DNA of 64,000 nucleotides from an uncultured bacterium (GCA_903832635.1 CAILCF010000002.1:7665-71664), one strand, 5' to 3'. Numbered from the stretch's first letter, positions 38,011 to 43,950 are shown. Numbers and translations are program-made. The notes: generated from the letters alone by a model not told the origin.

Positions 38011-40158
38011 TTATAATTCGGCATAGAAAGTTGTACCGTCCATCGAGAACCAGGCATTGCTGCCAGATCTAAAGCGTATATTACCGGACGAGTCGATATC
38101 AATTCTGCCAACCGCACCATTAGTATATGTTGCAAACAAAGCCCTTAAGCCTGGCCTATAACCAGCGGGGAGGGTTGCAATTATTGAATCATCTGTCATA
38201 GAGCCGTTCCTTATAAAACCTTTTACACTAACTAAACCATCAGCCGCTTTTGTATATTGCGGAGCTGAAAATCCAGCATCCAGTACCCAGCTATTTTGGA
38301 GTGTCAGAGCCGTCCAACTACCAACTCCGGCCGGATAATACATAGTGTTTATAGAAAAACATGCAGAACCAAGGCTTTTATCTTGTATTGCTGAATATCC
38401 AGGCCTAGGATCGATACCCATCCCTGTAAATGCATTATTGCATTGTTCCGGTACGTGCATAGATTGTGACGGCAACAGATTACTTGGCAGGTCAAAAATC
38501 CTGACAGGGTCACCCCTCGTTCCTGGAGCAACTAAGCCCTGCAGATTTACGCGACCAATATTGTCAACTACATATGAAGCCGGGGCTATCCCAACACCAT
38601 TATAAGAAGAATTATAATTACTCCAGCCATTCATAAATGTATCAATAGATGTAGGTGTATATCGACCGGTATCAGCGATAAAATGGATATTTTCAATAGA
38701 AAGCCAAGTTCCACTACCATAAATATATACAATTCGTCCATCTGACATTACATCAACCCGGCCGGATACATTCGGATTTGTCGCGATGCCGAATATTAGG
38801 GTGCCTGATGGCCTGTATCCAACTGGTAATATTGCAATTGTCTCGCCAACTGATGGTGTTCCGGTCCGAGCTATTAATCCGCTTAACGTGACAACTCCAC
38901 TAGTGGTCTTTAAATAGCGACCAGTGTTATATCCGGTATTATAGTCTGACCAACTGTTTTGATACGATAATGAGTTCCAACCTGCCACAGATGTGACAGT
39001 CAAGCGAGCAGGGGATGAAGTAACTTGTCCATAACTATTCGTGTAAATTACATGATACATATATCCGTCCATTGCATTTGTGACCCCAGCTAATGATAAG
39101 GTGGATGATGTCGCACCGGATACTGTTGTCCAAGTACTACCGTTATCCTGTGAGATTTCCCATTGGATTGTCATATTGGCACCACTCGCAGCAGTTGTAA
39201 AAGTGGCAGTATTGCCAGCCGAGACTACAGTTGGGCTTGTTGGTTGAGTCAGAATCGTCGGAGCCTGGTTGCTTAGCGAACGGATTGAACCTGTTCTAGT
39301 GACGGTGCGTCCGGATAAGGTTTTGGTCGCTGAAATAACGATATTTACCGAAGCGGCCGTTTGCATAGCGTTTTGTCTAACAACATCACTCGAGGCACCA
39401 CTGCCATCGCTGGCGATAGGAAGTGCAACAGGAGGATTGGCACCAGTCCAATATGTAGGGGTAAATGCAGTAACCCCATCGACCAATTCCTGGTCATTGG
39501 CAGCGCAAAACAGTGCACTATTTCCGGCTAAACAAGTTGGTTTTTGCCACGGCGTTGCGCAAACCGTCCCTGGATAATTGTTCCAGTTCAAAGGCATCAG
39601 GACACGTCGCCACAGCGTATTGTTTTTTACATAATAAACGATATTTGTCATAAGTTTTTGATTTTGGCTAACGTTTGGACTGCTACAGCCAAAGGGCTGA
39701 CTGGTCAGATTTATAAGATTTCGGGTTGGATTTAGGGGATTTTGGTCGCTTGCATATGAATTTAAAATCAACATATTACCTTTCGCGACAGAGGCATTTT
39801 GAAAATAAGTCGTGTCACTAGAAGTGTCATTATAACCTTGTCCCGCTACAGGTGTAAAACTATTAGCTAAAAATCCACCACTGGCTTTGACATCTTGGTC
39901 AATCCGAGTCATAGCGTCATTTATACTATATGCAAGGGCATTAGCCCCCCTGGATGATAAAACCGAACCGGTCATCGAAACAATTGCGCTGATAAAAATA
40001 CCAATTACTAAAATTACTATCGGGGCGATAATTAACATCTCGACGAGAGTAAAACCACGGTTGGTAGGTAGTAGTTGGTAGGTAGTAGGTTGTAGGGAGG
40101 GACTGGAAGTAGATTTTGGTTTAAATATATTCATAATTATTTTTTCTTTATAATCCAT
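38011..40158 (-). CDS. giant pilin-like protein with Ig-like domain and three C-terminal beta-rich repeats (candidate tip adhesin)
   Basis: TNRG|FTLVEMLIIAPIVILVIG prepilin motif. Ig-like segment QPTSPTVVSAGNTATFTTAASG...IQWEIS...ARLTVT. Three units of about 105 aa share W..L..QN.W......Y.K...G.V.L.G......LP.GYRP...GR.D....G.I. Confidence 0.75.
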   Translation of the reverse strand: MDYKEKIIMNIFKPKSTSSPSLQPTTYQLLPTNRGFTLVEMLIIAPIVILVIGIFISAIVSMTGSVLSSRGANALAYSINDAMTRIDQDVKASGGFLANSFTPVAGQGYNDTSSDTTYFQNASVAKGNMLILNSYASDQNPLNPTRNLINLTSQPFGCSSPNVSQNQKLMTNIVYYVKNNTLWRRVLMPLNWNNYPGTVCATPWQKPTCLAGNSALFCAANDQELVDGVTAFTPTYWTGANPPVALPIASDGSGASSDVVRQNAMQTAASVNIVISATKTLSGRTVTRTGSIRSLSNQAPTILTQPTSPTVVSAGNTATFTTAASGANMTIQWEISQDNGSTWTTVSGATSSTLSLAGVTNAMDGYMYHVIYTNSYGQVTSSPARLTVTSVAGWNSLSYQNSWSDYNTGYNTGRYLKTTSGVVTLSGLIARTGTPSVGETIAILPVGYRPSGTLIFGIATNPNVSGRVDVMSDGRIVYIYGSGTWLSIENIHFIADTGRYTPTSIDTFMNGWSNYNSSYNGVGIAPASYVVDNIGRVNLQGLVAPGTRGDPVRIFDLPSNLLPSQSMHVPEQCNNAFTGMGIDPRPGYSAIQDKSLGSACFSINTMYYPAGVGSWTALTLQNSWVLDAGFSAPQYTKAADGLVSVKGFIRNGSMTDDSIIATLPAGYRPGLRALFATYTNGAVGRIDIDSSGNIRFRSGSNAWFSMDGTTFYAEL

Positions 40159-42673: not shown

Positions 42674-43950
42674 TGGTCTACGCTCGATACCATCTGAACG
42701 GTATTGTCTACTTCCGTTCTGTAATAAAGATTAAATTTAGTGCACTCCGTGCTACCATTACATAATAAACCATATATGTCGAGGGGCTGATAGACATATT
42801 GATTGATTGTCGGCTGTGGTAAAACACCGGCGATTGTTTGGGTAGCATTTGTTGCTGAAATAAAAGTCTGGGTTGGGTCGTTTATACCCGGGGCCATCAG
42901 TGAATCCGTGTCAATGTCACGCAAAGCTGCGGTCATACTACTTAAGTTTGTTGTTAGTGACGTTGATGGGTAGGTATTTGAGGTTGTTGGTGTGGCATAG
43001 CGAATAATAACGACTCCTGAGCCACCATTTGCACTACCAGCACCTCCACCGCCAGTGTTGGCAACACCTGGCCAACCAGCATTTCCGCCTCCGCCGATAC
43101 CCCCAACACCCATATAATAACCACTATGTCCACCACCACCACCACCATAAAAAGTATTTGTTCCCGTTATGTTTGACAGAATACCAACGCCTCCATCACC
43201 CCCTCTTTGTGATGTTGCTGTTTCACCAGCCCCACCAGCCCCACCGCCTCCGCCACCAGCTGAAGAGGTGCTAAGTTCTACAGTTCCAGCCCCACCGCTG
43301 TAACCTTGTCCGCCAGTACCATTACCACCGGAATTAGTTGCACCCGAGCCACCTCCGCCTCCCGAGCCTCCACTGCCGGCAACGAGGCCGGTATCTCGAG
43401 AACCGCCTCTGCCACCCCCAATCGCCGTATATGTACCAAAGATTGAGTTGTTGCCATTTGTTGTTGTCCCCATAGCGTAAGCACCAAGCCCGCCATCACC
43501 GACAGTAACTGCCATTGTACCCGTTAATGTCTGTGAGCCTGTTAGAACACCGCCGCCACCACCGCCACCCGAAAGGTTGTCATGTCCACCACCACCTCCA
43601 GCTACAACAAGCACAGTAGCGCCACTGATCGTGCCAGTGCAGGTTAGTGACCCACTGGCTGTGAATGTATGAACAGTAAACAGCCCATCACGAGTGATAG
43701 TGCCACCAGTACAGGAACTTACCGTAGAACTGTCCGTCCCGGATGTATAATATGTTTCCAAATGCTGGGCGATTGATTCAATATCTGTTTTTCGTTCAGT
43801 ATCACGGGCATTTGCCTGGGCGCTTCGCAAATTAACAACGCCCAAAGTCAGCAAAATCGCCATAATTGTAATAACAATAACCAACTCAACGATTGTAAAT
43901 CCACGACGTCGCATATGTATAATCATAAACGTCTTAGGGTCAAATCGCAA
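42670..43950 (-). CDS. pilin-like protein with glycine-rich domain
   Basis: MRRRG|FTIVELVIVITIMAILLTLG (likely start at 43914). Gly-rich block FTVHTFTASGSLT...VVAGGGGGH...GGSGVVIIRY, paralogous to the next gene. Confidence 0.75.
   Translation of the reverse strand: MRFDPKTFMIIHMRRRGFTIVELVIVITIMAILLTLGVVNLRSAQANARDTERKTDIESIAQHLETYYTSGTDSSTVSSCTGGTITRDGLFTVHTFTASGSLTCTGTISGATVLVVAGGGGGHDNLSGGGGGGGVLTGSQTLTGTMAVTVGDGGLGAYAMGTTTNGNNSIFGTYTAIGGGRGGSRDTGLVAGSGGSGGGGGSGATNSGGNGTGGQGYSGGAGTVELSTSSAGGGGGGAGGAGETATSQRGGDGGVGILSNITGTNTFYGGGGGGHSGYYMGVGGIGGGGNAGWPGVANTGGGGAGSANGGSGVVIIRYATPTTSNTYPSTSLTTNLSSMTAALRDIDTDSLMAPGINDPTQTFISATNATQTIAGVLPQPTINQYVYQPLDIYGLLCNGSTECTKFNLYYRTEVDNTVQMVSSVDQ

Follow-up and report, generated by a model that had tools for sequence, protein, structure and literature searches.

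A Saccharibacteria minor-pilin trio decorated with modules related to phage receptor-binding proteins

Introduction

How ultrasmall bacteria from the candidate phyla radiation (CPR, or Patescibacteria) find and choose their hosts is largely unknown, and most of these bacteria are uncultured. The question is taken up here for a 64,000-nucleotide stretch of DNA from an uncultured bacterium (GCA_903832635.1, CAILCF010000002.1:7665-71664; hereafter the window, with positions counted from its first letter), which contains an operon of three genes, A, B, and C, whose products begin as type IV pilins and continue into large additional domains. What do these proteins do? A preliminary description, made from the sequence without database searches, regarded them as plausible host-recognition proteins of a pilus tip. 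We analysed them by profile searches, structure prediction, and comparison with related loci, and we consider it probable that A, B, and C are minor pilins forming an adhesive complex at the pilus tip, directed at the cell-wall glycopolymers of a bacterial host. This function gains support from the homology of their modules with receptor-binding parts of phages.

Three overlapping genes encode modular minor pilins

The open reading frame (ORF) calls agreed with the preliminary description on the positions and sizes of the three genes and on both overlaps. Gene A spans positions 42670-43950, B spans 40148-42673, and C spans 38011-40158, all on the minus strand (as are all features of the operon given below), and they encode proteins of 426, 841, and 715 residues, respectively. 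The tetranucleotide ATGA at 42670-42673 combines the stop codon of A with the start codon of B, and B and C overlap by 11 nt (40148-40158); these overlaps are consistent with translational coupling. The 426 residues of A are counted from a TTG codon. The start is more probably M13 at 43914, which leaves a protein of 414 residues with a five-residue leader and which was chosen by the gene callers in two independent ENA assemblies with an identical operon. Protein A has a pilin core split by a nested glycine-rich (Gly-rich) domain; in B, a Gly-rich domain is nested in a small pilin core, behind which two LamG domains are appended; and C consists of a pilin core, an Ig-like spacer, and a three-unit module resembling phage receptor-binding proteins (RBPs).

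Type IV pilins are recognised by a short leader ending in Gly, followed by approximately 20 hydrophobic residues with a Glu at position +5. Such motifs are present in all three proteins (RRRG/FTIVE in A, QSG/FSAVE in B, and NRG/FTLVE in C, the slash marking the predicted cleavage site), each followed by a hydrophobic helix. The class III signal peptide and N-terminal helix of A, MRRRG/FTIVELVIVITIMAILL (43840-43914), matched Pfam N_methyl at 1e-06 (28.5 bits) and TIGR02532 at 1.6e-5, and those of B, QSG/FSAVELLITLFIASVFLL (42593-42664), matched N_methyl with 22.2 bits. Both scores exceed the N_methyl (IPR012902) cut-off of 21.2 bits; C, with 14 bits, is under it. The leader of C is 27 or 35 residues, which is unusually long, because just two ATG codons and no GTG or TTG codon precede G35. 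When 53 homologs of C were aligned, F36, T37, and E40 did not vary, and conservation of G35 was at least 90%. The motifs, the scores of A and B, and the conservation of the C motif thus agree with the earlier view that all three proteins are of prepilin type.

With a pilin N-terminal module and at least one domain foreign to type IV pili (T4P), each protein falls under the published definition of modular pilins (PMC8179133). The additional domains are Gly_rich_2, two copies of Laminin_G_3, an Ig-like domain, and the three-unit module, and the pilin cores were defined by module-free orthologs. No C-terminal β-propeller of the PilY1 type was found in A, B, or C by Pfam, and all three have a pilin N-terminus. 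Matches to the NCBIfam models of GspH/I/J/K (FimU/PilV/W/X and ComGD/E/F/G) were all below the curated cut-offs and were mostly confined to the first 30-60 residues; weak exceptions beyond the N-terminal helix were PilV/ComGE for B and GspJ/HpsC for some C cores. The matches of a C core profile in the PDB were likewise confined to pilin N-terminal helices.

The domains anticipated from the sequence (Gly-rich, two LamG, Ig-like, and triple-repeat) were recovered by Pfam, hhalign, and a structure model combined with Foldseek; in the searches with hidden Markov models (HMMs), Gly_rich_2 in A and B and Laminin_G_3 in B were all above their gathering thresholds. The passengers are folded domains of binding type and not disordered low-complexity sequence, as the AlphaFold predicted local distance difference test (pLDDT) values were 86 for C and 95 for its repeat module. 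The G+C content is 0.45-0.48 at window positions 40000-44000, compared with approximately 0.40 elsewhere, and the GC skew turns negative there. Both features are due to the dense GGN glycine codons of the two minus-strand Gly-rich domains, not to a foreign origin.

The C-terminal module of C is homologous to a phage tail module

The AlphaFold2 model of full-length C (53-sequence alignment, mean pLDDT 86.4) comprises a long α1 helix (residues 38-92), a β-rich head extending to approximately residue 295, an Ig-like domain, and three β-sandwich units. The long helix and the following β-rich head form the lollipop fold of pilins. Four conserved cysteines are present in this pilin core (residues 36-295; 39274-40053), and among the 53 homologs C209 and C218 never vary, while C158 and C200 show at least 90% conservation. 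All four are invariant in the 21 core-only orthologs, and orthologs of 242-294 residues consist of the C pilin core alone. The following spacer (residues 300-390; 38989-39261) is an I-set-like Ig domain according to the structure model, with sub-threshold matches to Pfam Ig_3/I-set; phmmer against the PDB found an Ig-like protein at 5.8e-4 as well as titin, and Foldseek found Ig-domain proteins at probabilities of 0.9-1.0. Because the Foldseek search with the full-length model was dominated by Ig-domain matches, residues 385-715 were modelled separately. The resulting pLDDT of 94.7 and predicted template modelling score (pTM) of 0.92 predict the three units as a single rigid body, not as beads on a string.

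Unit 1 (residues 391-497; 38668-38988; pLDDT >90), unit 2 (residues 498-611; 38326-38667), and unit 3 (residues 612-715; 38014-38325) were not recognised as repeats by BLASTP self-comparison and are clear from profile comparison with hhalign, which aligned units 1 and 3 at 1e-46, units 2 and 3 at 1.3e-25, and units 1 and 2 at 1.7e-21, unit 2 being the most divergent. Searching the predicted viral structures of BFVD with Foldseek, we found the best match of the whole module in Microbacterium phage Truong, whose minor tail protein gave an E-value of 1.5e-21, a template modelling (TM) score of 0.89, and an RMSD (root-mean-square deviation) of 2.0 over 354 columns; among the next matches were many single-unit ones in tail proteins of phages infecting Gram-positive bacteria. 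A tblastn search of 50,697 phage genomes with the 331-residue module matched 90 phage records. The 31 records in which at least 88% of the module was covered (up to 97%) all belong to Microbacterium phages of several genome types and are mostly annotated as minor tail protein, with E-values from 3e-5 to 1e-17 and an identity of 26-29% in the best matches. The matched part is the C-terminus in both Truong gp37 and Cen1621 gp16, and the HMM of the Saccharibacteria units detected three units in each; the gene of Cen1621 gp16 is directly preceded by the genes of the tape measure protein and of one minor tail protein. Over its whole length, the module of C is homologous to the C-terminal end of minor tail proteins in Microbacterium phages, with the three-unit architecture shared and the predicted structures superposable; the difference is the carrier, which is a phage tail protein there rather than a pilin.

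At the level of the single unit, a profile of 55 units gave matches of 0.0022 to the RBP gp15 of Listeria phage PSA (6r5w), covering almost the entire unit, and of 6.8e-4 to a phage tail needle. Foldseek against the PDB also ranked 6r5w at the top (probability 1.0, RMSD 3.3, 22% identity), followed by the Pa223 tail needle and the RBPs of the lactococcal phages p2 and TP901-1; unit 3 was linked to 6r5w by both the unit profile and Foldseek. None of the three window units matched Pfam Caudo_bapla_RBP (PF08931), and two of the 55 related units did so at 0.011, under the family threshold. The likeness of the C unit to the lactophage RBP head is at the fold and profile level only. The RBP heads of the long-tailed siphophages PSA, p2, and TP901-1 recognise cell-wall glycopolymers of Gram-positive bacteria and are homotrimers with one unit per chain. 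A single C unit has the same β-sandwich fold as these heads; in contrast to them, C carries three diverged units in one chain, which might be a natural way to keep the homotrimeric RBP architecture as a pseudo-trimer. Three diverged RBP-head-related copies, displayed as one predicted rigid body on a monomeric pilus subunit, are a structural arrangement of which we found no description for pilins.

The unit of approximately 105 residues has 8,776 representative relatives (E<=1e-3) and no Pfam model, which makes it a candidate for a new domain family. About half of its top 140 relatives have a prepilin motif, and some relatives are giant proteins with 9-24 copies. Three such giants (P0241, P0243, and P0246; 3,265-6,485 residues) contain 17-24 matched stretches of the unit.

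Gly-rich domains are nested in the pilin cores of A and B

The Gly_rich_2 domain of A (residues 103-318; 42997-43644) interrupts the pilin core, separating its N-terminal part from its C-terminal one, and matched PF21722 at 1.5e-15 and phrog_2295 at 1.3e-47. The corresponding domain of B (residues 122-366; 41576-42310), which is of the type combining a TNF-like fold with glycine-rich motifs, matched PF21722 at 1.2e-26, phrog_2295 at 1.2e-56, and PHROGs 863 and 6202, both tail-fibre families. The Gly_rich_2 scores of A (58.2 bits) and B (94.6 bits) are above the gathering threshold of 24.3 bits, and A and B are 35% identical over 386 residues. In most orthologs of A, as mapped by tblastn in the 80 related loci described below, the two flanks of the Gly-rich domain abut directly. 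Seven orthologs of B, of 127-128 residues, match residues 1 to approximately 110 and 386-405 of B. The latter segment, in which the pilin core resumes after the insert (...Y-GNSQKTVSTSTYVSTPG; 41459-41518), was aligned by MAFFT with the C-terminal strands of the 127-residue orthologs. Hence the Gly-rich domain of B lies inside the pilin fold as a nested insert, with the LamG pair appended behind it.

Of these two concanavalin-like LamG domains, the first (approximately residues 420-615; 40829-41416) also matched phrog_8510, a virion structural protein family, at 1.1e-31, and the second (approximately residues 640-835; 40169-40756) has its best Laminin_G_3 stretch at residues 679-828. Together they matched Laminin_G_3 (PF13385; gathering threshold 27.6 bits) in two stretches with 138.1 bits and an E-value of 3.3e-40. 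A tandem duplication is indicated by the 71% identity between the 3' ends of the two units over 83 nt. In tblastn, the LamG pair matched structural proteins of cyanophages and Flavobacterium phages with E-values as low as 2e-34; taken alone, this match adds little because LamG is a generic fold. PHROG matches to tail and virion families were obtained for all three proteins: phrog_2295 and tail-fibre families for the Gly-rich domains, virion structural families for the LamG pair, and a minor-tail family for C.

A profile built from eight copies of pilin-borne Gly-rich domains matched the tail fibre protein gp24 of cyanophage Pam3 at 8e-6, with the terminal motif GG.G..GI.I..Y aligned. In Pam3 gp24, the TNF-like domain and the glycine-rich one constitute the receptor-recognising end of the fibre and are related to S16 gp38 and to the glycine-rich domain of ALK (PMC9608196). 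Membership in Pfam Gly_rich_2 and the terminal motif are shared between the domains of A and B on one side and those of Pam3 gp24, S16 gp38, and ALK/LTK on the other. The phage fibre, in which the domain recognises the receptor, is a trimer that requires a chaperone, whereas the domain is monomeric and inserted in a pilin here, where it is known from sequence profiles; the likeness to ALK/LTK extends to one related locus, L073, whose C-position ortholog carries ALK_LTK_GRD instead. A tblastn search of the phages with the Gly-rich domain gave no match, presumably owing to the low-complexity filter, and tblastn of the Gly-rich blocks against the 80 loci gave none either, though Pfam detects the domain in six of these loci.

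The decorated proteins belong to a conserved trio with exchangeable cassettes

At least 299 homologs of C were found, and where organism names were given they were mostly those of Saccharibacteria or Saccharimonadales metagenome-assembled genomes (MAGs). The organism is a member of Saccharibacteria, which are minute bacteria living attached to others. A scan of species-representative genomes yielded 80 related loci, to which domain pieces were compared by tblastn before ORF extraction, which are mostly titled Saccharibacteria or bacterial MAGs, with a few labelled Sulfuriferula, Dongiaceae, Verrucomicrobiia, or Parcubacteria. The closest is from a 'Candidatus Saccharimonas sp.' MAG, in which MurB is 83% and C approximately 58% identical. 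The gene order murB, A, B, C, one to three pilins, glyA (in reverse orientation), and murA is kept in 48-69 of the 80 loci. In most relatives, the orthologs are small: A has 164-200 residues (approximately 170), B has 123-135 (approximately 127), and C is as short as 242-294 (approximately 270). Since such small orthologs occupy the same conserved block, A, B, and C are a conserved minor-pilin trio of which the window holds an unusually decorated version; the proteins are thus not a special class of oversized pilins, as first supposed, and are instead ordinary Saccharibacteria minor pilins with lineage-specific cassettes.

The three pilin paralogs that the preliminary description had placed directly downstream of the operon are indeed present, also on the minus strand. 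They comprise 176 residues (37379-37909; N_methyl 9.1e-08; a candidate major pilin), 295 residues (36367-37254), and 155 residues (35814-36281; N_methyl 2e-08), and are 34-37% identical to one another. The 295-residue protein has a duplicated globular part, with two matches to the 155-residue pilin at residues 13-174 and 187-295. In almost every related locus, C is followed by one to three pilins of this kind.

The passengers at the three positions are lineage-variable cassettes grafted onto or nested in the pilin cores. At position A, Pfam detected the Gly_rich_2 insert in L001, L032, L033, L036, L039, and L040. Position B carries LamG in L006 (Pfam) and in L001, L007, L023, and L028 (tblastn), copies of the C repeat unit in L003, a module like the formylglycine-generating enzyme (FGE)-sulfatase family in L042, and, in L004 (6391-7917), a pilin N-terminus followed by seven RCC1 repeats (3.2e-67). 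At position C, the triple repeat is found in the majority of loci, and the other passengers are LamG with or without DUF2341 (L032, L036, L062, and L064), a fibrinogen-C-like domain (L040), an FGE-sulfatase-like domain (L042), fn3 (L045), and the ALK/LTK-type glycine-rich domain (L073).

Some loci deserve separate mention. The FGE-sulfatase/C-type-lectin-like modules of the B and C orthologs in L042 (6704-7951 and 7971-9605) are 76% identical over 72 nt. Since diversity-generating retroelements classically act on this fold, such an element was considered; a search for a template/variable repeat pair in 11 kb of L042 and around the window operon revealed none. In L077 and L079 (approximately 7500-8800), a RecA-PilB-PilC-...-PilM cluster includes, between PilC and PilM, a pilin paralog distantly resembling C (25-27% identity to the C core); a second set, linked to the machinery, is thus present in some genomes. 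The MAG that contains L007 has a second B-C pair, L053. The contigs of L013 (Sulfuriferula sp.) and L014 (Dongiaceae bacterium) contain the Saccharibacteria A-B-C-pilin operon, with murB upstream in L014 and none in the 2.9-kb L013, and are probably mis-binned.

Pilus machinery in the window

A T4P assembly cluster is located at 11608-16849 on the minus strand, 21 kb from the operon. It contains PilB (15062-16849; T2SSE, 9e-121), PilC (13831-15060; T2SSF, 4e-55), PilM (12716-13798; PilM_2, 7.5e-27), and, in the positions of PilN and PilO, two small ORFs resembling these proteins with one transmembrane segment each. The cluster adjoins RecA and RecX. The arrangement of RecA and RecX with PilC/B/M/N/O is that of T4P locus two of the saccharibacterium Nanosynbacter lyticus TM7x as named by Grossman et al. 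(PMC11623550), and it may reveal to which of the two pilus systems of Saccharibacteria the machinery belongs. At 2383-3840 (plus strand), 8997-10693 (plus strand), and 11608-16849 (minus strand), the window carries a ComEC-like competence protein and RecA/RecX beside PilO/N/M/C/B.

Proposed function of the trio and alternative explanations

According to the established model, minor pilins start pilus assembly and remain at the tip. By analogy, a prepilin peptidase would cleave A, B, and C after the conserved Gly, their N-terminal helices would bundle into a priming complex on the PilC/PilB machinery, and the downstream pilin paralogs would polymerise beneath the trio, which would thereby come to lie at the pilus tip. 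There, A would show its nested TNF-like/glycine-rich domain, B the same type of domain plus two C-terminal lectin-fold LamG domains, and C an Ig-like spacer and a rigid module of three RBP-head-related β-sandwiches. Such a tip could act as a multivalent adhesin for cell-wall glycopolymers of the host, which is probably Gram-positive and possibly a member of Actinomycetota, and retraction of the pilus could bring the epibiont onto the host.

The trio might instead belong to a pilus or pseudopilus for DNA uptake, twitching, general attachment, or secretion, its modules binding abiotic or polymeric substrates (environmental polysaccharides, DNA, or particles) and not a specific host. Such a role would fit the presence of ComEC, RecA, and RecX in the same window as PilBCMNO, the weak matches of the N-terminal regions to ComG and Gsp pseudopilin models, the generic binding folds of LamG and Ig domains, and the use of one TM7x pilus mainly for twitching (PMC11623550). 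We nevertheless regard this role as unlikely: the nearest characterised relatives of two of the three types of module are parts with which phages recognise their hosts, cassette-like turnover among lineages is typical of specificity determinants, and TM7x T4P-2 pilin mutants are reported to lack a competence defect (PMC11623550). It is less probable still, and to our mind distinctly improbable, that the passengers are pilus-displayed enzymes, such as glycan hydrolases, lyases, or cell-wall remodelling enzymes, serving feeding or penetration at the host envelope. Laminin_G_3 does belong to the concanavalin-like lectin/glucanase superfamily, some BFVD matches are annotated as pectate lyase or phosphodiester glycosidase elsewhere in the protein, and modular pilins with predicted peptidase modules exist (PMC8179133); however, no catalytic family reached its threshold in A, B, or C in Pfam or NCBIfam, the matching parts of the phage proteins are C-terminal binding units and not enzymatic parts, and both Pam3 gp24 and the RBP heads of PSA, p2, and TP901-1 are binding modules.

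The remaining explanation places A, B, and C outside the filament, as surface proteins anchored in the membrane by an uncleaved pilin-like helix, with an operon position that is merely historical. We give it very little credence, although the weak N_methyl score and long leader of C would suit it, as would the lack of a PilD among the window ORFs and the report that PilX1 and PilX2 of TM7x are not predicted PilD substrates (PMC11623550). A simple anchor would have no need of the residues conserved in the 53 C homologs (G-1, F+1, T+2, and E+5), the operon is tightly coupled with pilins in about 70 loci, and A and B score above the Pfam threshold. Each of these explanations is less consistent than an adhesive tip complex with the conserved prepilin motif, the absence of catalytic-family matches, the cassette turnover, and the phage-RBP relationships.

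Several points weigh against an adhesive tip complex. That A, B, and C are processed, enter the pilus, and sit at its tip is proposed by analogy; no Peptidase_A24-like prepilin peptidase and no PilT were found among the ORFs examined in the 64 kb of the window; and where A, B, and C match H/I/J-type minor pilins in sequence, they do so mainly in the N-terminal helix. C in particular is under the N_methyl threshold with a leader of 27-35 residues, and its weak prepilin score is paralleled by PilX1 and PilX2, which are likewise not predicted as PilD substrates (PMC11623550). The evidence from the modules is also uneven: the LamG and Ig domains are generic, the Pam3 gp24 match of the Gly-rich profile has a heavy compositional bias, the Foldseek match between a single C unit and solved RBP heads has a weak E-value (7e-3), and the pseudo-threefold packing of the three C units is a conjecture drawn from the homotrimeric heads. 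Moreover, the phage collection is rich in SEA-PHAGES actinophages, and the link to a host from Microbacteriaceae may partly reflect this sampling.

The connection with Microbacterium phages is suggestive because the hosts of cultured Saccharibacteria are Actinomycetota; one of these hosts, Leucobacter, shares its family with Microbacterium. The pilus and the phages may recognise host cells alike. A more far-reaching idea, which we put forward tentatively and hold to be somewhat doubtful, is that host-recognition cassettes are exchanged horizontally within a single pool common to episymbiotic Saccharibacteria and phages, in which the three-unit module of C would be the tail-tip device of Microbacterium phages and the nested Gly-rich domain the fibre-tip device of Pam3 and S16. 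If so, the modules at CPR pilus tips would determine, and allow the prediction of, the host of the epibiont, here a Microbacteriaceae-like Gram-positive bacterium recognised through a cell-wall glycopolymer, and epibiont and phages might compete for the same receptor.

Relation to known modular pilins

Modular minor pilins are already known (PMC8179133, PMC9934059), in Saccharibacteria as PilX1 and PilX2 (PMC11623550), and the domain combination that the preliminary description did not recognise is therefore an instance of a described principle. PilA, PilB, and PilC of Streptococcus sanguinis form a tip complex of modular pilins, in which PilC consists of a pilin module, an Ig-like domain, and a glycan-binding ConA-like lectin (PMC9934059; PMC8179133). 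That trio and the present one have in common three minor pilins encoded with major pilins, small pilin modules with grafted functional modules, and a proposed role as an adhesive, glycan-binding tip complex; S. sanguinis PilC, with its Ig-like domain and ConA/LamG-type lectin, resembles both C (pilin, Ig-like domain, and binding module) and B (LamG). They differ in that (i) a sequence relationship is detectable solely in the N-terminal helix; (ii) all three subunits are decorated here, with two modules nested inside the pilin fold and not appended; (iii) the modules here are Gly_rich_2 domains and a three-unit phage-RBP-like body, not vWA; and (iv) the presumed target is a bacterium and not human tissue.

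The closest taxonomic comparison is with TM7x (PMC11623550). PilX1 combines a pilin with a lectin-like β-jelly-roll and PilX2 a pilin with an RCC1 β-propeller; efficient host binding requires the module-bearing minor pilin PilX2, and sugars inhibit binding. TM7x belongs to the same phylum and likewise has minor pilins with large lectin-like accessory domains. The RCC1-propeller architecture of PilX2 occupies the B position in L004, LamG pilins occupy position B or C in several loci, and the RecA-RecX-PilBCMNO cluster of the window corresponds to TM7x locus two as described in that publication. By contrast, Gly-rich or three-unit modules, nesting, and a relationship to phages are not mentioned in the passages of PMC11623550 that were consulted.

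In the literature, our coverage of which was incomplete, we found no description of all three core minor pilins decorated at once, of a Gly_rich_2 receptor-recognition domain nested in a pilin fold, of a rigid three-unit, phage-tail-homologous module on a pilin, or of the conserved murB-glyA slot as a site of cassette exchange; nor did we find a report on the three-unit module of Microbacterium phages or one linking Saccharibacteria pilins to phage receptor-binding modules. What makes the locus interesting is chiefly a testable idea, namely that epibionts have host-recognition modules in common with phages. If the cassettes are specificity determinants, host ranges could be read from genomes, hosts could be selected for co-cultivation (here from Microbacteriaceae, as the C module is shared with Microbacterium phages), and the modules could be expressed as probes for cell-wall receptors of the hosts.

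Other genes of the window

A protein of 254 residues with seven transmembrane segments (27814-28578, minus strand) was considered as a candidate prepilin peptidase and was ruled out, being a heliorhodopsin (PF18761, 1.2e-97). At 32845-34374 (minus strand), an enzyme of the MurA/EPSP-synthase fold is fused to an N-terminal XRE-type helix-turn-helix domain (HTH_3, 2.1e-13), and a homolog is syntenic in 48 of the 80 loci. The conserved N-terminal part of glyA (serine hydroxymethyltransferase; approximately 34470-35760, plus strand) extends in frame upstream of the first ATG, GTG, or TTG codon at 34816; no canonical start is available, which suggests a non-canonical start or a sequence error. The gene at 4624-6408 (plus strand) encodes a 594-residue protein with a signal-like N-terminus and two lamin-tail domains (LTD, 5.2e-21), which is probably another surface protein.

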